Part shown: positions 2,949-34,065 of the stretch, piece after piece
Numbering within the stretch: position 1 is the stretch's first letter
Layout: each line of letters starts with the position of its first letter
DNA from: Yuukianura sp. NJ FZ-2021
Lineage: Eukaryota
NCBI GenBank assembly: GCA_046563655.1
Contig: CM102285.1
Location: 10,726,001-10,790,000 of the forward strand
DNA length: 64,000 nt
Reading direction: 5' to 3'
Translations under genes and position numbers: made by a program
Notes under the pieces: model-generated
Told to the model about the DNA's origin: nothing
Databases searched by the model: none
What the model saw: the letters and a program-made list of their open reading frames with translations, nothing else

Positions 2949-4500
<1,552 letters not shown>

Positions 4501-5667: not shown

Positions 5668-6369
5668 ATGCAACCGTATTATCCAAGAAGTGATCACACA
5701 CAAATCTTTCCTAGGGACCTCTCTAGACTCAAAAGATTTTCAAAGCTGCAACATCAAGTGCGTGAAACAGAAACTTTAGCAAGTCAATTTTATGAAAAAC
5801 CACCCTACTCGTACATCGCTTTAATTGTAATGGCTATTCAAAGTTCACCCGAGAAGAGACTAACGTTGAACGGAATCTACAGATTCATCATAGACAACTT
5901 TCCATTCTACAATTCAAATCGACAAGGATGGCAGAATTCAATTCGGCACAATTTGAGCCTCAACGCCTGCTTTTCAAAAATATACAAAGAGAGAGGTCAA
6001 GGAGGCAAAGGAAACTACTGGACAGTGGATTCCAATTACTTGGACATGTTTGAATGTGGAAATTACAGAAGAAGAAAACGGAAGATCCAAACCCAGCCTA
6101 CTCATGGTAATAATTCAGAGCTCCAATTTCAATCGATTCCAAACAGCAATCCAGATTTACGCAAAAACTTTCCAGAAAAAAGTGAAAAACTTTTGGCAAA
6201 AGTGAAACTCGACTCATCAGAACATGCAAGTTTGAATCCCGTTTTTGAAAACGCCAGTGTAGATACTACATGCAATGTAGAAAGAAAGTTCTGTGAAATG
6301 AATTTTCTGCATCCCTACATGTCAGAGAAAGCAAGAAATTTTAAAATTGAAAATTTGATACATTCGTAG
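5668..6369 (+). CDS. FoxL1: Forkhead box protein L1-like, single exon
   Basis: Forkhead domain [15 protein letters not shown]...[16 protein letters not shown]...[27 protein letters not shown]. The NRQGWQ and [15 protein letters not shown] signatures are FoxL1-type. C-terminal eh1-like FKIENLI. First ATG at 5668 (the ORF track starts at an upstream TTG). Confidence 0.85.
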
Positions 6370-9300
6370 CCTATACTTTTGAAAAAGTTTAAGTTTTTTT
6401 TAGCTACAGTTGTACGCCATTCCTACAAAAAGATTTTTCCGCTCTACGAAAAAAAAAATCCGTTTTAATTTTTAGTTTTCTTGTTTCACTGATTGACTTT
6501 TTTCAAGAGCAAAATTTATGGAATATGGTTTTTCCATTTTCAAAAGAAAAAAGAAACGTTCGCTTGAAAACATTCATTTGATGTAATTACACAGTGAAGA
6601 GGATGATGACAAAATAAATCTGTGTTTGAGATTTTGTTTATTTTGAGAACTAAATCATTTCTCAATTTCCCGTTTCTTTTTTTCCTTGGATGTTGAAAGG
6701 GATGAGAATAGAAACTTATAAGAAATCTGTCATAATAAAATGACTGTTCCCACGCAAAAGCTTCAAAAGCAGTTAAGAATTTAACTGAAGAGACACAACA
6801 TATGGATGTGTATGGTTCGTCACTTGGTTTCTCAGAATTTCAAAGAAATTAAAAGATACTTTAAGCTCTTCGTTATTAACGCCCCCACAACAATTTAATA
6901 AACGAAGAAGAGCAGAGATAGACCAAGGGGAGAGTATGGGTCTTTTCATCTTCAAAATTTCAAGAACTTTTAAGGCTGAAGGAAGACGGTTAACTTTTCC
7001 TTTGACACATCCAAGATGTTTTCATCCTTGACATCTCACATCATTGTCAACGCTTGTCTTTTGACTCAGAACCTAACCCTATACTCCCATGTTCCCATAA
7101 TTTTCAGCTTTCAAATTCCAGAATTTCTAATTTGACATTTCAGTTTGAGTTGTCTCTTACCTTGTCTCCGGTAATCGTTGTCACGAATGAGTTGTCCCCG
7201 GTGCACCCCTGTTGAAGTTGCAGATTGTCACAGGTCGATTTGCCAAGAATACGTTTTGAGGTTGTCGATCAATTGTATGCTTTACGGTTGAAGTTAGAGT
7301 CTCAAGTCGTGTTCATCTGTACCTAAAGTTGAAGTACACATTTATGAGAACAGTAATACCACAGTTTATACACAGTATTTGATAATTTGATAATGAAACT
7401 GACAGGAAGATCCAACTTTCACTAATCAATCCAATCCAACTAGGTCAAGGTCAAACTAATGGCTTCATTTTTTCATTTCTTAGTACATAATGAATTCTTA
7501 CCTTCCGGAACTTCTGTGGGAATGAATACGTCAATCACACGTACCACGTCGCAATTAAACGATTATGTTGACGTTTGTCACACGAAATCCCGTTAGAAAC
7601 TGGCAATCAATAAGCATCTTGTCGAAATCCGAGTGCGAAATAACAATTCGTTGCGAATTCGTTTCGGAATTTGCGAAATACGAACCATAATAAAAGCAAC
7701 CAATCAGAATCAAGGAATTAAATCAGCAACTTTTCAAATTTCGCTTGTTCCCGCCAAAACCAAAAAGTCAAAAACACTCTATAACAGTCACCCACTAATC
7801 ACACTGAAACGTGTCGGTTGCGTGTCACGACCGACATTCACTGTGCTAAATTTTCTTCTTCCTCTGCTTTAAAATATTTCTTACACGGCGTACTAGTAAA
7901 ACGAATTAATAATAATTATTAATTGGTAGTTAAATATTAATTTAACCAAGAAATTATGATATTCAACTTCCTACTTCTACAACTAACTCCCTTTTCTCTC
8001 CTGTTTTTAACCCTGAAAGTGTAACTTGTAAACACACATCAAAAGAAATATTTCAACATTCATAATTTAAAAATTTTCAAGGTACAAGCTGGAAAAATGA
8101 AAATTTTTGGATTTTTCATTGAACATTACAGTAGTGTCTTGTTGGAGGCGTGCCTAAGTTGTGTAAATAGAAATGACAATGAGGATGTCGTTTTCGGTTG
8201 TTGACACAAGTTTGTGGTCATGATGGGTAAGTTGGTGGTGGTGCTTAAGCACCCACTATGTTGACTTCGGAACTTGGAGCAAGTGACATAGCCAGTCCTT
8301 CCTGTCTTGACTTAGTCACGGAAGTGATCATCTTCCTTAAGAAAAATCAACATTCGGGCAATTTCGGTTCCTCAGAAATACTACACTTTATGAAATTCTG
8401 TACATTTGAGACGCGGAAGTGGCATTGTTGCTCGGAATAATACTTGGAATTTCAAACGCCGGCATTTTTCAAGATGAGTGGTTTAATTCGCATGTTTCGA
8501 AAGTTTAGCAATTGAAAAGTAACGCTTACTTTGGTGGAAGTTAACAACATAAACATGGAGTTTGAATCGGGAAGAAAACAAAAGAAAACGGCGAGAGAAA
8601 GGAAGCATGAAAGGCCTTAAATCTTGTTTTGAATTTAAACAAAACTTTGAAACCATACCACCAACTAGGATCTTCCAGAACTCCCTTGATCTATTATCCT
8701 CTCCTTAGTCCTTACGTAACACGTAAATTCAGACATCATTGGTAACATAAATTCGGAATTGAAATGGAAATGTGTATTTGAATTGAGTGCATTAGCAGTG
8801 CTAGCGGGAGCAGTAACTACACTTACGCGTATTATCACTCCCAGCGTCTCCGAGTTTCTATTCATAAGGGATCTTCTTAAGACTTAACTTGGGCATTTAA
8901 AGTTCTATTGACGGAACACGGAAGGGAGCAAGAGGCTTTCTGTGGGACTTAAAGACTCTCTGCCACTTGCCTCTTGTTGATATTTTCACACCTCATCTAA
9001 CAAAGTACTCAAACTGCTTGAATAATTTAACAGATCAAACTTCATTATTCAAAACAAACAGTGCTCTCCTCGCCCAGCCATTTCATCTACAGTTCTACTA
9101 CAGGAACTTTGTGTTTCCGTTCAAACTTTCACCAAAGACTATGAAAATTAAAAGAATTTTTTTAAACCTCCAAAATTTTTGAAAGTTTGGGAAAAATTGT
9201 GCCGCCCACATAAGTTAAAGCAAGATGGAGAAAGTAAAAGTGAAAGTGTTTTTTACAGAAAAGAAATTAGTGGCAACTGGCTATGAAAATTTCAATTCTA

Positions 9301-12300
9301 TTTTATTAGGATTAAGGTTTTCAGAATTTTTTTCTCGAAAATTGCATTTGCTTTTCCCAGTGCCACATACATAGCCTAATGAATCCGCGTCTGATGCTTT
9401 GAAATTCAGTGCAATTTTTTGTTAGGCTAACCGTCCTCAGTTTAATATTGCAGTGAAGTATGGATGTGAGGAAGTATATTTCGTTCAAGTAGGAAATGCT
9501 GTTTTATAAAGATGGTGTCTTGAGTAAACAAACCACACATGGCGAAAATATTGAACTTTCTTCCACTCCATTATGAAAGTGACAAAAGGTTCCTCCTACT
9601 CCGTTACACAAGCATGGCAAAGGCCTCCCTCCAATTCAGAAACCACTTAAGAGTTAGCCCAGGAGCCCTTCATCAAAGTGAGGCATTCAATTGATCTAAT
9701 AAAGCCCACATTTCAAAGACACTCAACATCCAAAGAATCCAAGCGAAATGTCCTGGAAAGAACTTTCAAACTTTCAACTTTCGTCTTATCATCCATTTAA
9801 GCAAAAATTATCACAAATCAGTTAAAATTCAAGTAAACTTTGGCTTGAAATCGTATGTATTTTCGGAAAAATTAGGTTTACCGTTCGGAATTCAAGCTTA
9901 GTTGAAGAGTCAATAATGGACTTTGGTTGGTTTCCTCGTGGCGATATGCACAAACAATGGTTTTATGGAAATTGACTTTCACCATAGCCTGATCCTGGTA
10001 ACTGGATTCATTCTAAATCCAAAGACTTATTGTGTATTCAACAATAGATTCCAATATCAATATCATAACAGACAAAGTCAACAGAAGGGGTTCACCACTC
10101 CAAAGTAAAGTGAAAGTTCCATTATTACACGCCGCACAGCATCCACTTCATTTCAATATTCATGCTTTCACCACATCACACTCCGCCTAACCTAATCCTC
10201 TTTCCACGCAATTCTCTCTACTATGGGATTCCGCAAATTCAAATTGGAAACTACAGTCCTTTTGAAAGCTGAAATTTCTTCTGAAGCTTTGCCCACAGGC
10301 CAAGATCAGGATCACATTGATTACTTTCTAACAGGGAAATTGGTTTGTAGGGGTAAGTGACACTTCCATTCAAAACTAACAGGCATCCAAATCCATAGAT
10401 TCAAATTTAGTTGCTGTTAAATTTTAAGAATGATTTGAAGTGGTACAGTTTTTGTTTTTAGTTAAGCGGTTTTGTTCCACTTTGGACATCAAATGGCCCA
10501 AGAAAGTGACAGGCGTGACATTAACCTTTGTCACCAAATTGGTTTGAACCCAAAGTCAGCAGGGAGTCTTAAAATTTTTGTCATTTCGAATTCTACCACA
10601 GACCGTTTTTTGGTTTTTCTTGTTCTGGAAAATCTTCTAAAAAGGTTTTCTCGACATCTTTGAACAAGAAATTTGAGATCTTTTCAACTCCAATTTTCTA
10701 AATACTTGGCTGCTTTCCCGCTGTGAGAACTTAAATTAGGAAAGTGTGACATTTTATTCCCGTTCTTTGTGTTAACTTCATAACCACGCAATTACCAACT
10801 TTTTCTTGCAATTGTTAAAAGCGGACTTTCGAACAAAATTGTTACCGTATTTTCGAAAAAGACAAAACTGTTTGATTTTTTTTTTCTAAATAGGTTTGGT
10901 TTTACAAAAGGGGAACTTAATGGCTTAATCCAGTGAGAGGCAGCCGTACCATAGTTGCCCCCGTGTTTATTTTGCGGCATAAAAATTTGTCTCCAGGGAG
11001 GATATCGTCAGAGATGTGGAAAAAATATTACAGGGAAGACCAAGCTGGATGCTTTCTGGATTGGTAAAAATGGAAAACCCTCCTGCGTTCTTTTTGAGAA
11101 GAGAGTTTGAAGTGAGCATAGCCTGAAAAAGAAGCTGCTTCAATTTCATTGTGTTTCCAACAGCTTTGAAAAGAGGGAAGAAAGGAGATCATTGAATTGG
11201 AGGTTTTGGCGGAGAGAAGTTCATGATGCCTAGGATGGATATAATGGGGAAGATACGTTGTGTGGGGAGGTTTATCATATGAATTGAATTGTTATTTTAT
11301 GGGGTGCGGAGAGCTGAGCCAAAAAGTAGAATACTTGAATTTGTTTGCTCAATTTGAAGTAGCTCAATGGACTTCACCCTTAGTCCATCCAAGTCCCAAA
11401 CTTCAAAAGAAGCAGTCCATAATCTCTTGCTTTCAACTTTTCAGAAAAGGGAAAGTGGCCTTAGCCAAACGCTTTCATGAAACAATATTCCAATGCTACT
11501 TTTTAAGAGGTCTTCGGAGTGTCAAAAGTGTCAGGAACAACAATTGGTAGGTTGAATTGCCAATTCACGTTGTTACTCTTCTCGAGCAGTTCAATGATTG
11601 GTGCTTCACTTTTAAAATTTAACAACACAGTACTAGCGAAAAAATTAGAAAGTGAAAGCTAAAAGTTTAAAAAGAGAAAGCATTTTGTTTTTGAAGTTTT
11701 GGTTTTCACATGCGATTGGATCAGAATCAGCTTATGTGCGGTTGATTCCAATCGGAAATATTTTTCCGCTTGGTTTGCGACCTTAATGAAAGTGAAACTA
11801 GCCTAAAGCTTGTGAACGGTGAAAGCTGCTCTGCGCCGTTCCTTACCTCTTTCCCTGCCATTCCATTCCCATTTGAAGTTTCGTCCACCGTTTCAGTTCG
11901 GATGCTGCTGCCTGCTCGTTGTGTTCGGATCGATGATATGGAAACGGCGGAGTCTGTCTCTGTGGGAAGTGGCTAGGGATTGGGTAAGGGGAGTTACAGA
12001 AGGCTGGGAATTGTTGGTGGAGTGCGAACCTATCTCTGTATTCCATGGGCTTGGAGATCTCATCACCTTCCAACCTAAAAATAGTCTCACAAGACCATCT
12101 TCCCTTCAACCCAACCCCAACAAAGATGCAGTTCGAGTCCAACCGAAATCAACAACCAACCGTTGAAACCTAACCAACACACACAAGAAGAAGCTCAGAC
12201 TTTGGGTTTTAAAGCTAAAAGCTACAAGGAAAACAGAAATACAGAGGAATTCATTCATAATATTCTAAGGACAGATCACACAAGGAAGAAAAGGCTCTCA

Positions 12301-12765
12301 ATATTTTCCTTTCTACAACACCCTCCTCCCTTTTGATTGTTGATCTTTCTCTAAAAGTTGAGTTGGTGTGTGGTGTTTTTAATTCAGACTTACAACGTAC
12401 AGTGTTCCGACTTGTTTTTACAACTCAAATTTTGGAGTAGTCAAAAAACGGAAATAATAAGGCGCATTCAAATAATTTCTGTTTTCAAAACAATCAAATT
12501 ACTGTTTTGATTCCAGCTTCAAAAACATCAACATCTTCAGCACAAGTTAAAAACTCTAAAAAGTTTTTATTTCAATCCAACACAAACAGTCGAACAGTTC
12601 CGCAGTCAAAGGCCGATGAACTGTGAAAGTTGGTGAAAGTCGAGACCATAATAGAAATACTTGCGTGTTTGCTGTAATTTGACCACACTGATTAACATCT
12701 CTAGTGAATAAAGTGAAAGTTCACCTTTTGACCTCCCACTACAGAGAAAATTAAATAGTTTTTGA

Positions 12766-15150
<2,385 letters not shown>

Positions 15151-18100
15151 ATCTTAAAAATTTTAGTAATACGTTAGTCCAACTCCTTTGAATTCTCAAA
15201 TTTTCATTTTACAGTAAAATTTAAAAAGTTGAGTGAAAGTCGCTAGATCACAAATTAGTTACCACCATGAATTTAGTAATTACATTTTTAGATAAAGTTT
15301 TTTAATTGAGAATTTAAAATTATGTAGTGTTATGATTTTTACGTGAAAATATACGTTATTTCAGTTTTACCATTTGTATGCTTCTATAATTTGATTTTGA
15401 ACAATTATTTTGCAAAATGGTTGATTTAATAAATCCATCGTACGTTTCTCATTTACAATTGAAATTTCGTGTCTGATGTTTGTTGGTGTTTAGCTCAGCA
15501 TGGACCAGAGCGTGGATTTTGGAGAGTAAAAAAATCAAAATTTTGAGGAAGAAAGTTAAAACGTCGTTTTACATAACACTCCATTAGGATTTTGTCCGAA
15601 GAAGACCTGCGTCCTTTGTAGCACTTTCTTTTGAGCTAAAACATCTTAAAATACATTTTCACTCAAAGTCTTTCCGAACCAGCTTTTCCGGAAAAGTAAA
15701 AAGTTTGGAGAGAAAGTTTTGTGAAAGTTGTTTGAAGACAACCACAAGAAAGGAAAGTTAGGATAACCTTCCTGCTGCTTCCTCCCTTTTGATACGTCTA
15801 AATGCAATGCAAAATGGATTCATTCATCCGTCCAGCAGCCGTAGTCTATCACTTCTATTCTGCCTTTTGGAGGAACCTCTGTCGATTTTAAGTTTAAGCC
15901 AAAAGGCTTCTAGAAAATAACCATTTGTCACTTTCCCACACGCCTCAGCTCAAGAGCCCCAGCAGTACTTGAAGGCATCTTGCCCAAAGGAAGAAGGGGA
16001 TCCTACATGCTAGAAAGGGAACAAATTGTTGGTTAGGTTGAACCATTCCTCAGAGAGTTCTGGAAAACCCAAATTATTATTAGCTTTGGATCTGAGGCAA
16101 CTGAGGCTTTCTGTACAATCCGAAGTGCTCTTAATATTTCCTGGAAAATGGAAAAGTCTCCAAAGTTCAAGTCAAGTTAAGCCTCGGTTGAGCTATACAA
16201 ACTCACTTTTGGAAGTTAAAAGGCGGAGGAAGGGGAGAAGTGTGTTTGGATTTGGAAAGTTCCTCAAAGGTCATGTAACCTAATTTGTAGTTGTAAGCAA
16301 ACCGTAAACTAATTCCTGGTTATAAATTGAGCTTTCACTTTTTCAAAACAAGGCAAAGTTTGCCGTATTTTCAAAAGTTCAGCATAACAAAAAATCTACA
16401 ACGTATCCCTTTAATTTTTAATTTAATGTTCTCTTTTCAATCCATTTACAAAATTTGATGAAATTTGGAACTGCGAGATGATTAAAAAAAGTTCCTTCGA
16501 AGCATTGTTTGCATTTTAGAAATAGGAATGAAAATTCTACTTTTTATTTTCAAAAAATGCAGATTTCTTTTTGGATTTGGATTTTGAAATTTGGATTTTA
16601 ACTTGAATCTATTAATCTTCTTCTGCTGTCGTTTGTCCTGAAAGGTTTCACCTTAAGGTGACGGTTTCGTTTTTTGTTCAAAAATATATTTGCTTGCATA
16701 GACTCTCTGGAGAGAAGGAGAAGCATTTTTTCAAATAAAAATTCTGAATTTTCTCACTTTTTTGAAAAGAGCTAAGCATTTTGAATAGGCTTTGATCACG
16801 ACCACAGTTTGAGAATCATTTATTGTGGATGTGGGATGCGATAAAAGTTTAATACTCTACCGCTAATGTTTATTATTGTTGCTTGCTGAGTGAATATGTT
16901 GACTTCAGACGTAGTGTAGAAAAATATTATCAAAGACAACATTTTAAGGTCTCAAAAAGAAATAAAAAATAATGTAAAAATCGGTTGGAAATTTTGGAGA
17001 AAGCTTTCTATCCAACAACTCACCACATGAAACCACTTTTTCAAAGGCGTTACTAAACTAAACTTTGGAGATGATGAGATAAAACTGCTTGAGAAAGCTC
17101 CAATTTTGTTAGGTTTAGAAGATAAAAAGTTATGTGAAAAGAAACCTTATCACCCTAACTTCAAATAATATTTCCGCCGTAGCTTTCTCTAAAAATACAA
17201 AAAAAGTGACTTTCACAGCCTTCAACTTTCTCCGCTTGGCCAAAGTTATATTGCTTTTCTGAGAACCAGTTTGGATAAATATTTTGAAAAAGAAAGTTAA
17301 TTTGGCAACTTCTAATGGACACTTAATGTTAGGGAAAGTTCGGGACTAAAAGTTCCCTGTGCTCTGGGGAAACAATAACTCAAAGTGAAAGTCCCCGCAA
17401 CGAAAGAACAACAAAAGAAGGTTTTCACACAAACTAATTCTACAGTTCAACGCCTCTCCATTGAGCTAATAATCACACTAGAATGATGTTCTGCAAACGC
17501 CGCTCCTACTTTCACTCCGCCTGCTCTCCGCCTCCAGCCGTTGTTTGAACTTTGAAGAAAGGAAATGAAACGTTGGAAAACGTAATTTCTCGCCTCCCTT
17601 CAGTCCTCTTCTCTTGTTATTTCTACAAACAAACCGATTTCGATTATGATAACAGGAGGCGTTCTAATATGAAAATGGTAGTGCGTACTTATGCTAGTGC
17701 TTCTAGAAGATCTCAAAAGTAAGCACAAGATAGAAGGCGTAAAAGTAAAAGCGGGAGTCACTATTGGTCAAAAGTGAAAGTCCTCGGCCTTCTCCAGACT
17801 GTGTTTTAGTATTTCAAAAAAAAACTTCTCTGTTACATTAGCAGCGAAAAGTGAATTCAAATCTAAATTGGTCATAATCATAAAATCATATGTTGGAAGA
17901 TCAAAATTTTACACATCACGAGTCCTGTGTAGCACGTATTTGGCAAAGGCTAACTTGCCAATGTCAAGGATCCTGATTTTTCTTTTTCAAAAAAAAGTGT
18001 CTTTGGTGGTCTCGTATCTCTTTTGATTAATTTCTATTTTTAATCTTACGAGCTCATTCAAAAAATTTAAAGCAAGTTGAAGCAATTTTATTTCGGGAGG

Positions 18101-20017
18101 TTTAGATCTCCATTTGATTCAGAATTTAATTTCTGAAAATAAAATTGGCAAGACACAAGACATGAGCTCTCAAACGAAGGATTTTTAAGTTGAAATTCTT
18201 TGTGTTTGGTATGAACAGATTAAAATAGTTACTCCCTTCGCGTGTCCTGAGATTTCCTCACAAAATAAAACAGTTCTAGTATCAGACCAATAACTTTGAT
18301 GCAATGATGAGTACATACAGTGCCCTATGTTCAAAAAACTTTCAAAAAAACGGTCTGCTTCTTTCAAAAACTTTCCTTCTGCTTCAAATTAAGAAGTGCG
18401 AATGAGGAGTTGAATTTCTTCACACGTTCTTTACCATCAAACCCATCAAGTTTTGGATAGTTAAGCAAGCTGTGAAGCAAAAACTTGAAAAAAAATGCTG
18501 CAGCGTCAGGCGAAGCTGCTTCGGAAGCATTTTTTTTGGAGGGTTTAGGGTTTTGCAGAACCTGAGTAAGCTCTGGACGTGGCGTGTGTTACGAAAAGCT
18601 GCATTAACCAATGTTCCTTACGACGATACTAATTCATTTTTAAGTTAAACTCCCCAGTCTCCCAGCCTCATCTGTCACGGATCTTTGGCAAGGCTATAAA
18701 TATTGTTTGACAGTTGACACAGAGAGAGATGCTCAAGACTTATAACAGGGAACGCAGTCTCAGCAAGACTTTTGAAACGAAACAGACTAAAGCCAAATGA
18801 CAAAAAATGTGCAAATTCATGACTATGTCCATTTTCAACACGAAAATCGTTTCGCAACTCTTGCTGTACCTCATAAACGTCAAAAGACTGTCACTTGATT
18901 CGAGCGAATTTGCACGAGTGAAGTAAATTGCCAGATTTTGCAAAACACGAGCGAGTCCCTTAAGTACCCGCACAAAACCTGAGCTTTGAATCACGATTTT
19001 ACAACAAAAGAAAGAGTAAACTAACATAAACTGTTGCATCTTTTTTCTCAATAAATCCGTCATGACTTCTTATACTTTCTTTATACAGTTTTTGTCTTGA
19101 AATTTTTTAAGCCTTCTCTTTTTCAAAATGTACCTCAATTTGTTCCCGTTGTCTTCAAGATTGTTACTCCTTTTGAACACAAAGCTCTCCTGCCTACACT
19201 ATGATCATAATAGCCCAGCTATAAAGCACCGAAAAAAGAAAACCTCCCACATTGTGTTTGAACAGTTTCAGTTTTTGGGCATTATTTGAAAATTAGAATC
19301 GTGTTTGACATGAAGAAGACCACACCGTTTCTTCCTCAGAAGATGAAGATGATCTTGGATGATCTTAGGATGAAAGGAAGGGGTTTCTGGAGGCTCCATT
19401 CACTTCCTTCCAGAACATACACCTAACTTAGTCTGTTTTAGTTTTAGGTTAGGTCTCTAGCCTAACCTAAAGTGAAGGGAAAAGGAACGACCGAGGAAGA
19501 AATAAATCCCTGAGCAACATTCCTTCTTCCCTCTAAAATGTTCAAGTACAGGGAAAAATCTGCTGTTGAAGAAGATTGAAGCGCATCGCTGAAATGCTGC
19601 TGAAATGCTCTTTTCTTAGATCATCTTCTCCGGATCCTAAATACTTCCAGCTGTCAACTTCATTTGAACACCATTTGAACAGGGAACAACATGGAGCTAG
19701 TATGGGAAAGTGGCTCAAAAGGCTTTAGTTTGTACGCTTACAGCTCACACTGACAAGAAACTTTTAACTCTTTCATTTTTCATTCTGCATTTTTCATTTT
19801 GGGCTTCCGATTTCCAGTTTTCACTAATTTCAAAACTTTAATTTTTCAAAGTCACTTTCTTTCGCGTTTCTCGACAGTGAAAACTGTCAGTGTAGGTTAG
19901 GTAAGAAGCGGAGTGGATTTAGAAAGAAAATGACTTAAGTCTAGGTTAAAATCAATCTTGAAATGTGAAAAAAACTTAAAATTCATGACTTTTCGGTTTT
20001 TAAAAAATTGAGACACT

Positions 20018-20061
20018 CCGTTTGACATTCGTTTTGAACCCGTTTGACATTCGTTTTGAAC
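20018..20061. repeat. 22-bp perfect tandem duplication
   Basis: ccgtttgacattcgttttgaac occurs twice in tandem. Confidence 0.8.
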
Positions 20062-23000: not shown

Positions 23001-24097
23001 CACCACCACCTTAATTCTGATGCATAAAACTTAAGATCCGAAGCGTATTATAACATGCAGATCTACCCAAGAAATATAAAGTGTATTAAAACGTAATGAT
23101 GTGATGAATTTACAGGAATTTGTTTGTTTTTAACAAAGAAGTTACAAGTGTAGTTTTAATAAAAAAAAATGCGAATGCAAAAATCGTTCAAATATTTGTT
23201 GGTACATCTGAATATTGTCGTATTTCGAAACTGCAAATTTTTACTATCGCACCACCAATTGACTTTACCAACAAAATTTTGATAAATCATAATTTAACAA
23301 GACAATTCTAATTTTTAAAAATTACCTTTTGAATTTAATCTTGATTCAAAAATTGAAGGAAAAAACTAAACTGTTTAATATGTTCCTTTCAGCATTTGGG
23401 TGAATTATTTTTTGACTGGAGGACAAGCGAAATAAAATTCTGACATTACGATTCTTGATTTTGTGTGTGAAAGAGCCATCTAAGTCGCATTTGATAACTT
23501 TTCGGTGCAGAATCCGTCCGTTGTAGTGATGTTAAAGTTTCTTCAGAGTTGGAGTAGTGGTTGGTTTCATTTCTGGTGATCTTTTCGACATCTGCAGAGA
23601 GATTTCACACTTACCAGAAGAGTTGGTTGCTTTTGAAAATAAAACTACGAGATGGGTCTCAACAGCAAAGCGTCAGATTCTTCATCTCCACTTCAGTTTC
23701 ATGCTTTCCGTAATTGTATATTTAAATAGTATAACTTATTTTAATCGTTTTTAAAAACTGTTATTTTATGTTAAAAGTTTGGCTACTGACACAAACTATA
23801 ACAAGAGCCGCGCAGTGGGTAATTGCAATTACTAATTAGAGGTAACATCTCCAAAATCAAAATTCAAAATGTTCAAAGTTTTCAAAATTTTCGATTCTGT
23901 CTTATACTCGGTTGCAACTTATCTTGATATAACTTGTCAAAATTTTGAAGCATTTGTTTCAAAGTAGATGAACAGGATTCAGTTTACTAGGGATTTTTAT
24001 TTCACAAACTTCAAATACAAATTCAGTCCAATTTGTGTAACACGTTCAGTTTTCAACTTTTTTTGGAAATTTTCACACTAAATTTTGGAAAACAGGT

Positions 24098-25857
24098 TTA
24101 ACGAGGCAGCATGTCCTGCAGATCTGCTAAAATGTAGGTCATAGCGGTGTACATGCCCAAGCAAATGTCCAGTTTATCCGATTCCATCATGCTAACCGTG
24201 TCTCCAGCACTGTCAACATACCAGTACAAGTGACCATCGTCACCATTCAAGGTCAAACTTGGAACAGCAGCCGGACTGTTTCCAATGCCAATCGTAGGAG
24301 TCGAGAAAAAGGAAGCATCAGAAACAGTTCCATTGACATGAATCAGACTACCGGAAGAGCCAATCAGAGAAGGAGAAAAAAGACGCAAGATGTCGTAAAT
24401 GATGCAAGTAGCCTGCGGAGTCCCTGAAAAAATGAAGCCCTTGGCCACGCGACATCCGAGATTTGCTGAAAGTGCTGCGGCATACTTTCGATTCAAATCG
24501 TTTTCATGATTGTCCAAGTATTTTTGGACTCCAAAATTTCCAAATTTCGTTCCAGCAAAGAACGCTGCTCGAACGGTTCGTCGTGGATAGAGTTTGAGCT
24601 CATCAAAGATCCGAGCCAGTTCGTAGGTTAAGATGGCACTTAGACCATCGACTGCTCCTTGGCCAATGTCCCAAGAATCGAGATATCCCGAGGCTACAAC
24701 GAAGTGATCCAAGTTCTCACGACCATCAAAATCACCAAAAACGTTTTGGACTATAATGGGAGTATGGCCTTCAGTATTTTCTAAAACGAGCTTCATCCTA
24801 ATCATTTTCCCTAAAAAAAATCAAAAATTACCAAAACTTGTTTCAGCATTGCTAAATCGCTGCGGAATACCTGAGGGGACACTTTTCTTGTAAAGTCTGG
24901 CCAGCAGTTCAGCATCTTCTAGTGTGATTGTTGCAGCGGGAACTCTTCTGGCTTTGTCAGTGTATTGAAGTAGTGTAGCGTGAATTGAATACAAGGAAAA
25001 TGGCGCAGGAGATTTCATTAGCACCGCGGCGGCTCCTAGGAAAGCTCCGCGAGACGCTGCGCTGGACAATATCAGTTTGGCTTCGTCGAAATTCAGATTG
25101 AAAACCAAAATTTTTCCAGCAACCTTTAAAAAAATTGAACATTCAAGTCCATTTCCAACTTATTTCAGAAAATTTCTTCAAAATTTTAAAAAATTGGCAT
25201 GTTTACATTAAATTTGTTCAAACGCAGCTCTTCCAAGCTGTCAATCACAATCACGTCAGCTTCAATCGGTCCGCGTGTAGGAATAGTCAAGCCCATGCCC
25301 TTCACCTCAATCAACTTCGTGATTGGTTGTAGAATTTCTGCAGTTTCGAATCCTCTAAACTCAAAATAAAGAAAATTTGAAACCAAATTAGTAACAATTT
25401 GAAAATTTTCAAAAAGTTACGAATTTTACCGTCTCCAGTTTGGAATAGAAACGTCTTCAACAAACAAGCGTCCTGCCAAAGTAGGAATTTTGAGCAATTG
25501 CTTTGTAAAGAACGAAACTGCTTTTCCATAATCTGGCGACGTGACAATGCGTGGCCCAAAGCTGTCCGTAAAATGTGCCAAATGCTTAAACGTTTCTCCC
25601 TTAAAGGCTCCCGAAGTGACCAATTTCATGATTAAATCAACATCCGCTTGGTAGCCCTTGATTTCCTTCTTCAACTTTCGGTCCAAGTTGCAACTACTCC
25701 CATCAAATTCTCCGAAACTTTCCCAGTACGAGTACCGAGTCGTAATTTGAGACCGAACTTTCGGTGTCGGTTCGGAACGAATCGGTTCGTCGACATTCTT
25801 AGCCGCCTGGGATACCGCTGACCCTAGCCAACACACTACAACTATTGTTCGCAACAT
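24098..25857 (-). CDS. CPQ: Carboxypeptidase Q (peptidase M28)-like secreted protein, predicted catalytically inactive, 4 exons
   Basis: Exons 25857-25430, 25354-25207, 25123-24871, 24810-24098 splice in frame. Signal-peptide-like MLRTIVVVCWLGSAVSQA. CPQ-like segments FTDSFGPR, IPNWRRGFETA, PAATITLEDAELLARLY, LDSWDIGQGA, PRRTVR, ILADLQDMLPR. Confidence 0.88.
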
Positions 25858-26713
25858 GGTAAAACTGGATATGATGTTTTAGCTCTACTGAGTTAGGAAT
25901 AAGCAAAAGCTGATGAAAAAGAACAATTCATTGGATGAAAATTAATCAAATTGAGTTCATTCACACTTTAATTGGAATTTGACACTTGTGACAGGTTAGT
26001 TTGGCGAAAAGTTTTGCAAATTGTTCTAACTGTCAGGTCAGGAACAAAGGTGTGAATGTTTTCGAAAAAGAGAAAAAGTGAGTAGTAATTTGTTAATTAT
26101 TATAATTTCAATGTTATAAAAATTATAATAAGTTATACCATTGTTTTTCGTTCTATTCAAGGAAGAACTGAACGGAGGATGCTTCTGAATAAAGTTAAAG
26201 TGAAAATGTTAGGGTATTATTTTTAGTTTTTCTTACTTCTAAAAACCCACGCTCCCTACTTTTCATTTTTCTGGAAGAAGGGAAGGGGATGAAGGGAATT
26301 TATTGTTGTCGTTTTTCTTCCTTGGCTTCCCCAGTTTGGAAGGTGTTGGACTGATACTAAACATGTTCCCTCTAAAAAACACCCTGACTTGAAATTATTC
26401 ATAAAGTTTTGAAAAGTAACATTTTTTGAACAAATTAAAAAGAAGTTGAAGATCTGAGGGCGTAAAATTGTAAAGAAAAAGGTAGTGGAAGAGGATTCAA
26501 ATCCTTTAATTGCTCCATAACTGTCCCAAATGCCAAAGTGAAAAGATGCAGCTACCTTTTCACAATTTCAGTTCTTATGCCCAAAGTAACTTAAAAAATA
26601 GGTCTTCTACTTTCGTTTCTTAACGTTTTGTGTTAAAAAAGTAAAATTTCAATACAATGCAAATCCATACCATGAATTCTATATTAATTTGATCCTTTCA
26701 ATTTGAAAATTGA

Positions 26714-26815
26714 GAAACTGAAACTGAAATCGCGACAATTCGGAATTCGAAACTTAAAAATTAACAAACTGAAATTGAAATTGTTACAATTCGGAATTTG
26801 AAACTTGAAAATTGC
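26714..26815. repeat. Imperfect ~50-bp tandem repeat, 2 copies
   Basis: aaactgaaa(c/t)tgaaat..acaattcggaatt(c/t)gaaactt(a/g)aaaatt repeated twice. Confidence 0.6.
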
Positions 26816-29800
26816 AGTTCGGATTTAAACTTTTATGGTCAGCATACATTTTGGCTAGAATTTGCTATGGAACAAAGTATTGCCGACAACCGGAAGTGTC
26901 GAAGTGTTTCGGAACTGGAAAATCAGCGACTGCTGGAACTTTCTAGTCTGAATGCTGAAAACAATGGGCTCCAGAGAGCTTGGATCGGCTGCTTAATAAC
27001 TCATGTCCATTTGGTGGGCTGTCGGTAGTTAAAGTGGGTCCTAAAATCCAGCAGGATGGTTTTGGGCTGGAGAGGAGCGGGTTAAGGGTTAGGGTTGGAT
27101 CGGTTTTATTACCAGACTTGGAGTGTTTTCCTTAAATCATAAATCCTCAAAATGTCTGACTCCAGAACGTTGTTTCCTTCAGGAGAACTAAAAAACATAT
27201 GCCGATACCACAGTGCTTAGAGGACAAGAAATAAACAACTTCTCTTTCAATCTTCGATTCAAACCTTGTTTTACAAAAGTTAGGGGTCAGCAAATAGCTT
27301 ACAAGTAAGAAATGACGCACTTGGACTACAATTTAGTGCAAAAGTGTGCTTAGGTAATACAATTTAGCACGCGTCTTTATCGGTTCAACTGAAATTAATG
27401 AAATCATTTGGCACTATGGACGGAGCTATAAAGAATTAGGAATGGGAAAACGACCTATTCATTGACGAGGCTATTATGTTGCTGGTCAGCTATAAAGTGG
27501 CTCTCGGAAATTGTTAAAGTGCCGACAATACATCGGCCCATCAAATTGTTTCAAGCTGCACCCAACTGGTTTCATATATTGAAGAAAATATCAAATCTTA
27601 GTTTAGTTTTTGAAAAAATACATTCAAGTTTTTTAAAATTTTGAAAGACTGACATTTTTCCAGGCGACAAAGTTGAAATTGTGTGGTAGGCTTTTGTTGT
27701 CTAATTTTTGTGTGAACCGCAACTTTTTTGTATAACTAGATTTTAACAAGGAGTGAAAAGAAGAAAACCGGGGAGTCTTTGGGTGTAAAAATCTTGTTAA
27801 ATGAGTAAGTAGTAAAACTATTAAGAAAACCCCGAAGTTTCTTTCAATTTTTTTCTAAAGAATTTTTTTTGAACAGAAAGTTCAGAGGCAGGTTGAAGTG
27901 GAAAGTGCCAGAAGCGGTGGACCCTCCGCTATTTGCTTATTTGTTCTTCCCAAAACACATTTGAGATCCAATGTCTTCTTTCACTTCTCTTTTTACTCCG
28001 TTTTTACCCCATTTCCTTCAAAATTTTAATTTTTTGAAACTAGCCGCCAAAAAATGGCTGAGAAGACGCTTTCAAATAGGATGGAATTTCCAGAACTTTG
28101 CGTTGGATGCTGATTCATCACTTTTCGAAGATTTTGAGACCAAAGAAATATTTTTGTCAACACTTCGTTTTCGTGTTTTGAAATCAAAATTTTTTGTTTC
28201 CATTGTTCAACATTTGAGCGTCTTTCATCACAGGAGCAGAAGCGGAAGATGGTTGTAATGCAATCCTACACTAATATTTTCGTTTTTAAAGGCTTTTGAG
28301 ACCAAAGAAGCGCCGGAGGTCAGGTCAGCAACGATTTGGTGAGTAATGCGGCGTCTCCTGGTTTAGCTGATGTACCAGAATCGTTGTTGAACTTCTGTTA
28401 CGCTGACGTTTGAACGAGACCTTTGACTCCCAGCCACCATTGACAGCTAGTGTCTCTAACAGTTTATTCAGTCTTTTAGACTTAAGTAAGTCTTGCGGCA
28501 TTTTTGACTAAAAACAATGAAAACAAAAGGATCCCACCACCCACGAACGAACTTGGCCTTTGAGTCTACTGCAGAAGCCGACCTCTGAGACCTTCCAGCA
28601 ATTATTAATGGTGTCAATTAGCACACCCCATTAAGAGATCACACCCCAGGATAATAGGAACAGGATCTCAGAAATACTCGACCACAAAATGCTTACTCAT
28701 CTTTAAAATCTACGGACCAGAAACAAATGCTTAAAAACGAAAATTAATACAAGAGGAAAAAAGCTTTGTAGATTTAAATTACACACAAACATCGTTTAGC
28801 ATTCAGAAAATAATTCTCAGAATAAGTTTTTTCGAAATTAATAAAAACATAGCTTGCTTTGCATTTTGTCAAATTTTCAAAAACAAAATTGTTTTTTTTG
28901 TCCATTGTAAGTTTCAAATGTAGTGTGAGAAAATGTATTGTACCAGCTTTTTGAAAAAAAAAATTAAATCGAACCTTACTCAAAATTCAGAAAACTTTCA
29001 CCAAGGCTTCGAAAGAATAAGAAAGAAAGAATGAAAAAATTTTGGAGAAAGTTCGTCGCCTGAAAGTTAAAATTTTTGGATAATCCAACAACCTAAACTT
29101 CCTACATATATTTTCAAAGATTAAAAGATATTTCTGTCTTTGGCAATAAATCGAAATTTTGAAAACGTGTTAGTTTTTGGATATTTAGTGTAATAAGGCC
29201 AGTTATCAAAGGGTTAGAAAATAAACAAGAAAAATAAGCGTGGCTAAATGCCTGTATTTTGTTTTTTATCAACTTGAGGAGAATATCTCCCAAAAACAAT
29301 TCCAGAATCCAGATTCTTCAGTTTTTTTTTAACTTGAAGTTAAGATCTTGTTACAAAACTAAAAGATCTTCATCCTCCAGTTTTCTCAAGAAATATGTTC
29401 AAAGTCAAAGTGTAGGATGAAGAAAGGGTTAAAAGTAAAAACATGATTTTTATTCTGTCGAGAGTGAAAATACAAGCGTCTTTTAGGCTTTTGGAATCTT
29501 TTAAAAAGTCTCAAGAAGAATCCCTGGTTCCTTTCCTATTTCTTTCATTAGATTTTCTTTAGTTTCAAGGGAGCAAGACGCATAGTGTCTTAAAAGTTGC
29601 TTTTGGCAGAACCCAAAAAACTTAACTGTTTTCCTTGTTCAGAAAAATAGGGAAGACTCCTTTGGCTATGTTCAAACATCTTCCATCTTCATCTGGCTCC
29701 TTTGGTTATTTCCCATCTCCATGTCTTTCATCTTTGATCTCCTGCTCAATCAGATCATTCTGGGGATGCTCAATGCAAAAGCATCACACTCTTAGGGAGC

Positions 29801-30182
29801 ATCTTCCAGATTTTTTGGAGCTTTGAGCCAATTTTTTTTCATCTTCAAAGTCTTGGTTCTTATTGGAGGTGGAGAGAACGGAAGGCAGATCTTTAGGAAG
29901 ATTTTGAGTTACCAAAAAAAGATTCTCATCTCTAAAGCACCTTGTACTAAAGCGTACCCCTTTTGAGTATTTTGCAATCAACTTCTAAGAATTTAGTTCA
30001 TTTTGGAAGTAACCTTAGAAGGTTACGTGAGAACCTTGTTGGTCGTGATAGTTACAAAAGTGACACCCGAGACGCACTTCGCTTGAAATTTTTTTGTGAT
30101 GTCAGGTGAACTTCCATTGTGATTTTTACTAACTACTGCCCGTGTTTGCCCACATCACGACCAGTTACGTCCGGCAAGAACA

Positions 30183-33100
30183 ATGAAATCGGAAAGTTAT
30201 TACAGCGAAAGAGACATTTTGAGTCATTTGAAATTGAGCAGTTCACCGAATGGGAAAGGCATTTCCTCTACAACCCCTTGTACCACAAGCAGTAGCAGCA
30301 TTTCCAGCGTCTTTAGTTCCCAATTGACGACTTCTCAGTCGACCTTGTCCATAATGCCTGGAATGATGGTTGACCCCGGGTCATACCTTCCCTCCAGTTC
30401 CTATCTCCCTTTAAGCCATAACCATATTTCAAGTGCCTCTTCGACCTCACTACGTCGCATACCCACATCCAGCACCCCGCCAGAACAAGATCTGGAAGAT
30501 TTGGGCTCTGAAATAGATGACGAAGACGAAATTGGATCCAGTTCAGAAGGAAAGGTCAGCAGAAGTCGGAAGCATTTTGAAGGCAGCAGCCCCCCAGGGG
30601 GCGGTGGTGGCCTAAGTCCTAGTGGTGGGATTATGAACAACACGGTGAATACGAGCAGTAGTTGCAGTGGAACTGGTGGGACCAATGGTGGCAGACGACA
30701 AGAAAAGCCACCATATTCATACATTGCTTTGATCGTAATGGCAATCCAGAGTTCACCGACAAAAAGATTGACGTTGAGTGAAATTTACCAATTTCTGCAA
30801 CAGAGATTTTCGTTTTTTCGGGGACCGTACCAGGGATGGAAAAATTCGGTTCGACATAACCTGAGTCTTAACGAGTGCTTTATAAAGTTGCCTAAAGGAC
30901 TAGGAAGACCTGGAAAAGGTGAGTCAAAATTTTCAAAGAACTTGTTTTTCAAATTCGTTTTCTAAAATGTACTTCCGATGAGTCAAACTCACGCGTGCTG
31001 AATTCAGTTTTGGAACAACGTAAAGAACGTAACTATTATTATTGGCTCACCGCCCTCAGCCAGGGAAAGGTGAAAGAAAGCAGATGGATTCCGGTGGCAT
31101 TAATGATTTCTTGAAAACTTTGTTAAATTCCGCAAATCCGGGAAGTAACTTTTCGAAATTTCAAAAAAAAACAAAAAACTCCTGTACCACAGTTATTTTC
31201 AAACTTGACACTTCAAGCACAACTTAAGCTTACATTTAAGATTACATTTCATTGAATTTTGAGGTTGATTGACATTGACATAACAAATCTTGGTTTGCAT
31301 TCCAGGTCACTTTTGGACCATTGACCCCTCATCAGAGTACATGTTCGAAGAAGGCAGCTTCCGAAGGCGTCCCAGGGGATTTCGCCGGAAGTGTCCAACC
31401 CTGAAGCCCTTCAACTACTACCCACCAACTTCTGGTCCATCCAATGGTGACCTCAACAACAATGGCACCAACAATAGCCTAGGACAAGATCTAGGTTCAC
31501 CTGGAAACTCAACAGCATCTCTGTACCCGGGACACGCCCTCGGAGTCCCCCTCATACACTACCATCATTCAGTCCCGCAGAATCCCCTGGGCCTAAATGG
31601 GCTGTCCCAGAGTCTCACCCACCCTCAGGCCCAGCACAGTCCCTACACCACCTCTGTCACTCATGCGACCAACGGAAATCCAGCCTTAATGGACTACCCG
31701 CAACATCCCATGTCACCTTCATCCCCCTCCCCCTCCATCAGCGTCATACAAAACAACCCCTTTGTTTACCAACAACAAAGTCAACAAAACCTACCCTCAC
31801 CAGCAACTACCCCATCATCAGCCTACCTTATTGCAACGCCAAATCAACTGGCCTCGTATGATCCTCTGCCATTCTACCCCACTGCGTCGGCCCAGCAACA
31901 CCATTATGACATGATCCACTACGAAAATTCACACTATGGCAATAACAGCAACAGCAGCGACAGGAATTCGGATTTTGAGCCACCACATCACGGTGGTGCT
32001 GGCATAACTCCTCCGCCGTATCCATCAAATCCGAATTACGATGGAAATAACATCGCAAATTCTCCTGGACTGTCGGCTCAGGCTGCAGCTAATTCTTGGC
32101 TACTGAACTACTGCGGCCAGACACCGCTTCAGAACAGCTTTAGTTCCGGTTACTATGGCAACCACAGCGGAGGTCACTGCCATCCCTCTTCCAGAGCTTC
32201 TGTAAGTCCAAGTCAAATGCATTCCCAGTCTCCAACGGATCCATCCGAAGGGGATGAAGACACGCTGCCTTTTGGACACGGTGTCATGGACAGTCAACCT
32301 GGACAAACTGTTTCCAATGAACAGGCAATTACAGGTGCTTTGCTTTAACTTTTTAGCACAAGATTAGAGAAATTGTGTTTTTTGTTTCAAAAATTCAAAA
32401 ATTTCAGTTTTAAACGGGGAATTTAAGAGCTGAAATTGCAACCGCATTCTGTCATGTCATTGCAGCATCTTCGTATCATTTTACATCATAATCGCTTTAA
32501 AATTTTCAAGGGTGTAAAGAATTTTGAATTTCTTGAAAGGTCAAATGTTATCGAAAGATGAATCATTTTCTACGGTTACTTAAAGTAGTGAAGTCAGTGA
32601 TGTGACAAAAGACTTTGACAGTGGAACAATTAAGTTCTTAATGACCATTTTGTTCACAGAGATGAAAGATGCATTTATGTTGCACATGCACTTGACATCT
32701 TTTAAAACTGAATTTAAAACCTCTCCCACGTCCCATTGTTTTTCAAGATCCATTTTAAAGTTTAAACTTGCAACTCTAAAAAAGTGGAAAAGCCAACATT
32801 TGCTTTTTGGAAACCGATGACTTTTTGAGAACGTGTTAATTGACACGTAATCTCGATTTAAATTTAGATTGAGTTGACATGACCTCCAGTTAATCTACAT
32901 CGCATTTATTAAGTTGACCTAGGGTCAGTTCGGATATTCCAATGTTCGCTAAAACTTTTAATATGAAATGGAATTTAAACGTTAAGTTTATTAGCGCTTA
33001 AAGCTATAATTAAGTAGAGAGGACAAGTAAAGGTCACTCAATTAAAAATTGAGTAGGCTTTTTGGGAACAGCGCAAAACAGTTAAGCACTTTGAACACTT

Positions 33101-34065
33101 TCATTCAAAGTGTTTCAATTGTCCACTTCTGTGAATCTATCAAAAACGAGGTGGGTGGTACGTTTAACGATGAGTCTGACGCTGAGACACTTTCCCATTG
33201 TCAATTTTATTATTCCGGAAGGACCTTTCTTGTGTCGTGTCCAATTGAAATGAAAGTGGTTAGGGAATAACTTGCAATTTAAAATTTAACATACGACTTA
33301 AACGATTCAGAATCAGACAACTGGATCAAGTGGGTACCAAAATGTCTGCACTTAAAAACTTACACGACTGGACTATGGATTATGATTTCGAATCTCATGA
33401 ATCATGGATATTAGTTTTTGATTTATTGGTTGATTTTTTTTAAATCTGAAATTTTATTGGAGTTTCATCCAGACACACTTCTTAAACGAAGTGTCAACTT
33501 ACGCAGCAAATTATGACAGATAGGACCGAAATTTATGTAACTTCCAAAATTTATTGCAAAATTTGCAAGATTCGAGTTTAGCGTGACCCATATCTTGAAA
33601 ATAATCGTTTCCATCATTCCTGTACTAAGAGTGACCTTCATTTCCTTTTCGGTTTTAAATACTCCTAGAATACAAAAATATGAGCAGAAAAGTTATGATT
33701 TAAAATTTTAAACTAATTCATGAAAATCTTTCTCTGCTTTCTCCAAAGGAATTCGTAACTTGCGGAATCAACTGTGTGAAGACATGAAGCCTTATTTGAG
33801 CCTTGCAAGTCAATTGACCCGGGCAAGTTCTGGAAGATTAGGGTGTGGACCCTTAGGATTATACCCTGCTGGATCCGGATCCTGTGACAGATCTTCTCCT
33901 GAAGACATTGACAAAGTCAACAGTGGTACAATCATTAGATTCTCAGCATCTTCTTCTACGCTAAGGACCAGGACACGCCCACTTTCTCCAGAATCAAACG
34001 GTGTAGAAAGACCCTCCAGTAATCCTACAGCAGAATTCAGTTGTATCAAATACAAATATGATTAG
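30183..34065 (+). CDS. FoxF: Forkhead box protein F (biniou orthologue), 3 exons
   Basis: Exons 30183-30918, 31306-32334, 33749-34065. [105 protein letters not shown] is diagnostic of FoxF. Exon 3 (ccaaag|GA ATT CGT AAC) is in frame with exon 2 but less certain than exons 1-2. Confidence 0.93.

Follow-up and report, generated by a model that had tools for sequence, protein, structure and literature searches.

Why FoxF, FoxC, and FoxL1 have remained neighbours in some animal genomes is stated as unknown (PMC8918179), and the explanation of their persistence is disputed (10.1101/2022.03.02.482670). The question is raised by a stretch of 64,000 nucleotides from the springtail Yuukianura sp. NJ FZ-2021 (GenBank assembly GCA_046563655.1, contig CM102285.1; hereafter the window, i.e., C3:10726001–10790000 within a 98.7-Mb assembly of 22 contigs), in which a FoxL1, a FoxC, and a FoxF gene follow the gene for GDP-mannose 4,6-dehydratase (GMD, the GMDS orthologue).

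A genome-wide PF00250 profile search, in which 23 candidates were scored, returned 20 matches (a lower bound) that could be grouped into 15 Fox genes (those outside the window being labelled from trees and from motifs that we take to be diagnostic). Three of these 20 matches (at C3:10731794, 10739009, and 10756702) fall in intact genes of the window, all on the + strand, so that profile and gene models both bear out the three forkhead subclasses on one strand that an earlier note, made from the sequence alone, had placed here. The physical order on the single contig is FoxF–FoxC–FoxL1 and transcription runs FoxL1>FoxC>FoxF, with GMD upstream on the same strand. The span from FoxL1 to FoxF measures 28,398 bp up to position 34065, or 26,681 bp if FoxF ends at 32348, and GMD and the three Fox genes together occupy 31 kb. 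The spacers of 6417 bp (FoxL1–FoxC), 8947 bp (FoxC to an intervening peptidase-like gene), and about 4325 bp (from the latter to FoxF) agree with the 6.4, 8.9, and 4.3 kb given in that note. Chance placement is excluded: the genome has 15 Fox genes over 98.7 Mb, and those that lie together within 28 kb, in the known order, are precisely the three classes known to cluster.

The locus is probably the springtail descendant of an ancestral bilaterian (FoxQ1)–FoxF–FoxC–FoxL1–GMDS neighbourhood in which the FoxL1–FoxC link has been kept by cis-regulatory constraint. Directly observed are the gene identities and their order, GMD beside FoxL1, a second species with this GMD>FoxL1>FoxC layout, and spacers that contain short conserved elements. 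FoxQ1 would have been lost, as in other mandibulates (a loss reported in PMC8918179), and the block would have shrunk along with the genome.

GMD (2949–4500, + strand) comprises 7 exons encoding 359 aa with a PF16363 domain, and its best PDB matches are GDP-mannose 4,6-dehydratases. It is the sole such gene found in the genome (it is the top PF16363 locus, the runner-up reading as a different enzyme), and it adjoins FoxL1 across a gap of 1,167 bp, one gene away from FoxC, i.e., as a bystander within four genes of a regulator. Since all six GMD introns (each GT-AG) measure only 67–89 bp, and since none of them contained an element that stood out in alignment to the second species, the standard explanation for such linkage, i.e., enhancers inside the bystander, does not fit the springtail gene.

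This second species was found in a set of metagenome contigs with 80 forkhead loci, 35 of them FoxL1-type (a set with much redundancy, to which large genomes contribute only short flanks). In two of the 80, i.e., L051 and L078, a FoxL1-type gene has GMD as its neighbour. In L051, which is springtail-type, a GMD gene with small introns lies upstream of FoxL1 on the same strand, and the last 127 nt of this contig are exactly the first 127 nt of L128, a springtail-type FoxC locus. Together, L051 and L128 are read as a second, distant springtail-type genome with GMD>FoxL1>FoxC and a FoxL1–FoxC gap of about 8.3 kb; its FoxL1 aligns to that of the window at 48% identity and its spacers are otherwise unalignable. 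In L078 (2545–8925), an insect-type FoxL1 is followed 3.6 kb downstream, in the same orientation, by GMD, which suggests that the FoxL1–GMD link has survived in some insects as well; for a FoxC of that library, the best matches are ant proteins.

The integrity of the assembly was examined with contigs from four runs (X1, X2, X4, and X5; Logan; two samples from two studies) mapped to 5401–25400. Contigs of X1, X2, and X4 cover all 30 bins of this interval, and X4, from another study, carries a single contig over 9444–14109, its contigs being more fragmented across the FoxC–peptidase spacer. A chimera joining unlinked genes across a spacer would fit with no mapped contig spanning the whole stretch, and with mapping having covered 5401–25400 rather than 25401–34065. 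Nevertheless, 5401–25400 is fully tiled by three runs, the second species repeats the GMD>FoxL1>FoxC layout, FoxC and FoxF lie 27.7 kb apart in Folsomia candida (PMC8918179), and the FoxC and FoxF proteins of Orchesella cincta are both assigned to one 272,213-bp contig. The chimera against which the earlier note had warned therefore did not materialise in 5401–25400, and its probability for the cluster is negligible. X4 diverges by about 2% over the mostly non-coding 9444–13286, similar to FoxC exon 2, and by about 4% over 5401–6831, the lower value being a weak hint of possible constraint upstream of FoxC.

Gene models and identities of the three Fox genes

FoxC comprises exon 1 (12787–13222, + strand), whose best named springtail matches are FoxC of Folsomia (81%) and Allacma (78%), and exon 2 (13634–15150, + strand), which contains the eh1-like motif FSVDSLV. 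With its one intron, the model encodes 650 aa, or 642 aa from MHTLFG; because homologues begin with MHTLFG, the start codon is more likely at 12811 than at 12787. FoxF exon 1 (30183–30918, + strand) has a domain part 96–100% identical to FoxF of Orchesella and Folsomia, and exon 2 (31306–32348, + strand) has an in-frame stop at 32346–32348 and a possible splice donor after 32334. Ending in exon 2, FoxF would measure 592 aa, and 693 aa if spliced from 32334 to a probable exon 3 (33749–34065, + strand) through an in-frame GT..AG join. Poly(A) signals lie downstream of this candidate exon and none within 650 bp past the exon-2 stop, and its CEDMKPY stretch resembles the CDRKPY motif of 12 of 119 FoxF homologues. 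In a profile of the FoxF C-terminal motif it was the best of 119 targets, but at 5.8 bits (E 0.07) it did not exceed shuffles, and BLAST against 359 proteins gave no significant match; the third exon is probably genuine but stays a candidate.

The closest named arthropod relatives of both FoxC and FoxF come from Folsomia, Allacma, and Orchesella, which marks the animal as a springtail, and in a 31-row LG+G4 analysis the FoxC and FoxF clades received supports of 98/94 and 100/100, respectively, by which both identities are judged secure. FoxC and FoxL1 each have an eh1-like motif and FoxF has none.

FoxL1 (5668–6369, + strand) is a single-exon open reading frame of 233 aa with a C-terminal motif at residues 225–232 that we take to be eh1-like. 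Almost all of its best 120 homologues carry FoxL1 names, and its wing motif GN[YF]RRRKR occurs in 119 of its own 120 homologues, as compared to 0/118 in the FoxC set and 0/119 in the FoxF set. Three trees were built, i.e., a 44-row mixture-model tree, the 31-row LG+G4 tree (14 rows dropped, one added), and a third of 38 rows. The forkhead phylogeny that the earlier note had proposed as a check came out moderately in its favour: the gene fell inside the FoxL1 clade with 82/82 support in the mixture-model tree, and an approximately unbiased (AU) test on the 31 rows rejected its placement in FoxC (p 0.0005) and did not reject FoxL1 (0.33). In the 38-row tree, a springtail-type clade with 97/99 support joined it to an Allacma protein and five unnamed relatives; the FoxL1 tail pattern MSxKAxxFKIENL is matched by this Allacma protein and three unnamed relatives, a fourth having a close variant.

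These trees also hold points that weigh against the FoxL1 assignment. The AU test does not reject placement in FoxL2 (p 0.054), FoxL1 is not resolved under LG+G4, and the long-branched FoxL2 of this genome falls inside FoxL1 in the 38-row tree. The gene might instead have arisen from FoxC by local duplication and divergence, or might be an additional FoxL2, which would make the three-class cluster illusory. Consistent with this, FOXC2 and FOXL2 were its nearest matches among solved structures (no FoxL1 entry was among the matches), and a dragonfly counterpart, LFUL002511, had a similarly disputed call, being FoxC by consensus and FoxL1 only by full-length tree (PMC8918179). Yet FoxC is rejected, wing motif and best matches are FoxL1-type, the 97/99 clade ties the gene to the Allacma protein and five further relatives, a separate FoxL2-type gene is present on C8, and the gene sits at the position expected for FoxL1, which together make such a misassignment very improbable. 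We are accordingly highly confident that the gene at 5668 is best read as FoxL1, an identity well supported by best matches, motifs, and the FoxC rejection, and less so by the trees. The FoxL2 label of the C8 gene is one that we presume.

Among the 20 PF00250 matches of the genome (a lower bound), no second FoxL1 candidate and no FoxQ1-like domain was found, and the window likewise holds no FoxQ1-like domain. The set of 15 Fox genes resembles the reduced set of 14 in Folsomia (no clear J2/3 or N2/3) with FoxL1 added. Elsewhere in the genome, a divergent, orphan-like forkhead domain (L014) was seen on the small contig C19, and the FoxP locus (L019, C8:9911532–9914618) has two alternative 3′ exons for the forkhead domain (…KCFMRVENVKG… and …KCFVRYEDDFG…). 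Mutually exclusive FoxP exons occur in other arthropods.

Order, polarity, and GMD linkage across genomes

The genome of the scorpion Centruroides sculpturatus measures about 0.9 Gb, and relative to genome size its Fox cluster is tighter than that of the springtail. It has the same positional order FoxF–FoxC–FoxL1 in tight linkage, keeps FoxQ1, and spans 52 kb from FoxF to FoxL1 vs. 26.7–28.4 kb in the springtail (PMC8918179, Tables S2/S3). The latter is the smallest three-gene span among the species compared (in the available part of that survey's table): in the louse, FoxF–FoxC–FoxL1 extends over 189 kb, and in the dragonfly Ladona (where the FoxL1 call is disputed) over 352 kb, i.e., about 7–12 times the springtail span (PMC8918179). 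FoxC–FoxF linkage is called universal in the insects and crustaceans studied, with a gap of 64 kb in Tribolium, and fly Fox genes are counted as loosely clustered (PMC8918179). While FoxL1 lies 6.4 kb from FoxC here, none was listed for Folsomia, the one springtail surveyed there. The ancestral-cluster reading and the gene identities proposed by the earlier note hold on best matches, motifs, and trees, and on an order like that of scorpion, louse, and human 6p25. In Drosophila, the cluster is broken up.

As compared to the complete four-gene cluster of scorpion and amphioxus, the springtail lacks FoxQ1 next to FoxF; of the three-gene mandibulate form, it has the FoxL1, FoxC, and FoxF orthologues and their close linkage in the order FoxF–FoxC–FoxL1. 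The locus is therefore a real three-gene form of a known cluster. It is new in two respects: GMD is retained despite the lack of long introns, and polarity is reversed. No report of a springtail Fox cluster or of an arthropod Fox–GMD linkage was found, though Mazet 2006, Shimeld 2010, and the supplement of Irimia 2012 may record GMD linkage or orientations in invertebrates.

In vertebrates, the order at human 6p25 is FOXQ1–FOXF2–FOXC1–GMDS (PMC1634998), and merging this with 16q24 (FOXF1–FOXC2–FOXL1) yields FoxQ1–FoxF–FoxC–FoxL1–GMDS, next to FoxF–FoxC–FoxL1–GMD in the springtail window. The pair foxc1b–gmds is shown as a developmental gene with a non-developmental partner among ancient conserved pairs (Irimia 2012, PMC3514665), and one intron of human GMDS contains FOXC1-associated conserved elements at distances of 194 and 290 kb from FOXC1 (PMC9597995). 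Conserved non-coding elements thus surround FoxC in vertebrates and springtail alike, but human GMDS houses distant elements in one intron, whereas springtail GMD has the very short introns given above. Of the features of a classical FoxC/FoxL1–GMDS regulatory block, the springtail shows bystander proximity and conserved elements (six, in one comparison species) and lacks long bystander introns with enhancers of the regulator; it is not a classical block, and either descends from one or works like one.

Polarity differs as well. Merged vertebrate gene models run FoxC>FoxL1 in duck and FoxQ1>FoxF in one fish, whereas the vertebrate-type polarity FoxF>FoxC>FoxL1 is not found in the two springtail-type genomes, which run FoxL1>FoxC(>FoxF); polarity is not treated as defining in the available parts of the sources. 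A reversal of direction under unchanged gene order would require local inversions. Vertebrate polarity (FoxC>FoxL1) was also seen on one 25.5-kb contig of an invertebrate (L090/L095), on which about 12.5 kb separate FoxC from a FoxL1-type gene and a gene that we presume to be MOB-like lies upstream of FoxC. The Elysia locus P0004 was discarded as polarity evidence, being a duplicated FoxC fragment and not a fusion.

The linkage of GMD, the conserved elements, and the reversed polarity go beyond the earlier note. Known hexapod clusters extend over 190–350 kb or are broken, and the vertebrate FoxC1–GMDS landscape covers hundreds of kb; in a 31-kb block with six located candidate elements, every spacer is small enough for reporter tiling. 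Moreover, the locus separates traits that are confounded in vertebrates, with GMD linked in the absence of long introns and order kept although polarity is reversed, and both separations provide tests of the common view that such linkage is due to enhancers within the bystander. The locus also shows that springtails have FoxL1, which went unrecorded in the Folsomia-based survey. It is a good system for asking why linkage persists, although not a new kind of system.

Conserved non-coding elements and the persistence of linkage

The spacer alignment proposed in the earlier note was carried out against L051 and L128 (together the one comparison species) and yielded short conserved elements, the significance of which was judged by comparing bit scores to those of 100 local dinucleotide shuffles at the same rank within the spacer. 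All elements are given on the + strand. Upstream of FoxL1, one lies at 5247–5268 (about 420 bp before the ATG, and about 380 bp in L051; 28.3 bits, rank 2, 0/100 shuffles) and one at 5398–5415 (about 270 bp before the ATG, and about 254 bp in L051; 17 of 18 positions identical, 29.2 bits, 2/100 shuffles). The FoxL1–FoxC spacer holds element A at 8609–8642 (29/34 identical to L051; 40.1 bits, rank 2, 0/100 shuffles), element B at 9526–9547 (21/22 identical to L128; 32.8 bits, rank 3, 0/100 shuffles), and element C at 11331–11360, 1.45 kb upstream of FoxC (29/30 identical to L128; 50.9 bits, 0/100 shuffles). Element D, at 15920–15942, lies about 770 bp past the FoxC stop in both species (22/23 identical to L128; 38.3 bits, 1/100 shuffles). 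Elements A, B, and C are co-linear and on the same strand in both species, each beating 100 of 100 shuffles at its own rank, and element C is single-copy in the genome at up to one mismatch.

In both species, C keeps the forkhead-type motif TGTTTGC, B keeps a CACATG E-box together with AACCACA, and D keeps TTCCCACA; we take these to be Fox (C), Twist and Runx (B), and Su(H) (D) sites, such short motifs proving nothing alone. Control flanks (74 kb) gave one match of at least 35 bits and none of at least 40, vs. three and two in the cluster spacers (21 kb).

In the preferred explanation, the conserved elements would be enhancers or promoter parts under purifying selection, possibly read by Fox, basic helix-loop-helix, and Notch-pathway factors. 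The FoxL1–FoxC link would then be kept because breakpoints inside their spacer would cut genes from their elements, although each element may be dedicated to its nearest gene and not shared. FoxC and FoxF have roles in arthropod mesoderm and gut. FoxC and FoxL1, which bear eh1-like motifs, are probably repressors that bind Groucho and function in mesoderm and gut, whereas the site of FoxF function is probably visceral mesoderm; a part in mesoderm/gut patterning is reported for FoxL1 of other arthropods. GMD would probably be held passively, by its 1.2-kb gap to FoxL1, by the elements upstream of FoxL1, and by the nesting within an NVL intron described below, and not by intronic enhancers.

A stronger form of this explanation, with which its probability overlaps, holds that elements A–D act on two or three Fox genes and perhaps on GMD, so that the locus would be a regulatory block in miniature in which order would matter and polarity would not. 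The co-linear elements in the middle of the FoxL1–FoxC spacer favour such sharing, as does the conservation of gene order despite reversed polarity; the forkhead-type site of element C in both species would fit cross-regulation, and co-regulation has already been proposed for the Fox cluster (PMC8918179). However, element positions fit single-gene use equally well, the FoxL1 patterns published for Tribolium, Glomeris, and Parasteatoda are, in the available descriptions, largely those of gut and nerve cord, and the Owenia authors argue for gene-specific regulation (10.1101/2022.03.02.482670). We regard sharing among the Fox genes as possible but rather unlikely.

Several observations weigh against a constraint-based reading. 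Conservation rests on one comparison species and on elements of 18–34 bp, and downstream of FoxC nothing beyond element D exceeded chance against L128. Forkhead sites are not enriched in spacers 1–3 (11, 13, and 7 observed vs. 12.0, 16.9, and 7.1 expected); in the GMD–FoxL1 gap there are 5 vs. 2.4 ± 1.4 expected. GMD is absent from 33 of the 35 FoxL1-type metagenome loci, including 9 of the 10 of at least 9 kb. The 14 annotated Fox genes of Folsomia include no FoxL1, and FoxL1 of Tribolium lies 21 Mb from FoxC (PMC8918179), while the annelid Owenia keeps mesodermal expression without a cluster (10.1101/2022.03.02.482670). Linkage thus appears dispensable in many lineages.

Spacer length, from which the earlier note had argued for shared cis-regulatory DNA, was rejected as a sign of it, since in a control on six unclustered Fox genes the flanks of lone FoxD and FoxG are equally long. 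This control covered 12 flanks of 10 kb, with 7 of them contributing 113 frames to a Pfam search. Coding-free flanks of FoxD measure at least about 8 kb on the upstream side and 8.5 kb on the downstream side; they measure at least 10 and at least 9 kb for FoxG, about 7 and 4.6 kb for FoxQ2, about 4–6 kb for FoxA, about 1 and 4 kb for FoxL2, and, for FoxB, as much as 10 kb on one flank and 1–2 kb on the other (in a codon scan that was imperfect, having overlooked FoxL1 itself and an RPAP1-domain gene detected by Pfam). The FoxL1–FoxC gap of 6.4 kb is likewise ordinary, sturgeon having gaps of 7.6 and 8.3 kb. In L051/L128 the gap is about 8.3 kb, and in L090/L095 it is about 12.5 kb. Spacer length thus shows only developmental genes in a compact genome, and that part of the claim falls, while its other part, that the spacers hold regulatory DNA, retains the support of the conserved elements.

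The long flanks of lone FoxD and FoxG also suit an explanation by inertia, in which the cluster would be an unbroken ancestral leftover, small along with its genome and with local enhancers for each gene, the linkage itself being unselected. Short intervals would be small targets for breakpoints, the cluster is broken in Tribolium and Owenia, FoxC and FoxF are separated by a peptidase gene that has paralogues, and local rearrangement has been tolerated, all three Fox genes appearing reversed relative to vertebrate models. Against this, order and GMD adjacency persist from vertebrates to springtails, with no other listed vertebrate neighbour recognised among the flanking genes, and the FoxL1–FoxC gap stays short across very different genomes (6.4 to about 12.5 kb), so that we consider inertia unlikely.

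Quite unlikely, finally, is the most far-reaching version, in which the GMD–FoxL1–FoxC–FoxF locus would be a 31-kb miniature of an ancient block, having kept its order and GMD since the last common bilaterian ancestor, lost the long GMD introns, and turned all three Fox genes in place, with the Fox genes sharing a few elements of 20–35 bp (bearing sites of the Fox, Twist/Runx, and Su(H) types) that would drive GMD as well. If true, GMD would be a co-regulated partner rather than a bystander, and GDP-fucose supply would be coupled to a mesodermal Fox programme; GDP-fucose is needed for Notch fucosylation.

Intervening and flanking genes

The sole coding gene inside the cluster is an M28/carboxypeptidase-Q-like gene (24098–25857, – strand; PF04389) that was aligned to PDB 3iib. 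Where 3iib and the genomic paralogues have HLDSW/HMDSW, DD, and EE, this gene reads YLDSW, GAVDG, and GTKFG; because several metal-ligand and catalytic residues are thereby altered, its product is probably inactive. Since the family has 7 PF04389 matches in the genome, with active-looking paralogues on C3 and C4, the gene is probably a later arrival in the cluster. L128 ends 8.3 kb past FoxC and has no peptidase match within that distance. The gene is intact and spliced in X5 contigs, and probably encodes a secreted pseudo-peptidase.

Run X5 is recorded as "DNA?" and was treated as RNA-like from its behaviour: it covers 13 of the 30 bins, its listed long pieces coincide with exons, and two introns of the peptidase gene, which have canonical ends, are left out of its contigs. 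Parts of FoxL1 and FoxC are represented in X5 at low depth, and no RNA run was listed with matches in 24001–34000.

At the other edge of the cluster, the NVL gene (nuclear VCP-like AAA ATPase) has its first coding exon at 394–601 (– strand) with the ATG at 468, the remaining gene extending upstream of the window; a downstream exon has NVL as its best PDB match (E 1.8e-58), and AAA domains are present. One X5 contig joins 7161 to 601, both ends being single-copy in the genome, and its loose end corresponds to window positions 562–591, which points to a probable NVL exon in the 5′ untranslated region at 7161–7322 (– strand) with GT..AG borders, on the evidence of that one contig. A probable further 5′ exon at 7502–7620 (– strand; upstream end undefined) follows from an imprecise X5 joint (7269>7499) that a GT..AG intron at 7323–7501 fits. 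The probable 6.56-kb intron in the NVL 5′ untranslated region (602–7160, – strand) would enclose GMD and FoxL1 in antisense, again on one RNA-like contig, and the NVL promoter probably lies inside the FoxL1–FoxC spacer. In L051, no match to the putative NVL 5′ exons was found. The single intervening gene of the earlier note thus stands as one protein-coding gene, whereas spacer 1 probably also contains non-coding NVL exons.

No hidden coding gene emerged from 59 other spacer and flank frames of at least 65 aa, none of which passed the Pfam cut-off (two sub-threshold matches), and an Rfam search of the whole window gave no match. The only repeats common to the spacers were the forkhead boxes themselves and A/T-rich chance matches.

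The flanking gaps, described earlier as 0.1–1 kb for the most part, are not all that short, with 2.5 kb from the NVL ATG to the GMD ATG and about 3.4 kb between an eIF2B-epsilon-like and an SLC7-like gene. These two belong to the downstream block (35102–63242), in which a NOP2-like methyltransferase, WDR19/IFT144, and one short-chain dehydrogenase are supported by Pfam; the adenylate-cyclase-like, eIF2B-epsilon-like, and SLC7-like transporter genes and a second, tandem short-chain dehydrogenase are labels that we assume. Some 30 kb upstream of the window, several tandem genes (L021–L023) were read from translations only, and are presumably M14-carboxypeptidase-like genes and a glycerophosphodiester-phosphodiesterase-like gene.

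Between NVL and GMD, a 342-bp element (1491–1832) has terminal inverted repeats and an 8-bp target-site duplication (GAATGCTC), and is presumably a hAT-type miniature inverted-repeat transposable element. Four other full-length copies in the genome, at 90–99% identity, make it look recently active.

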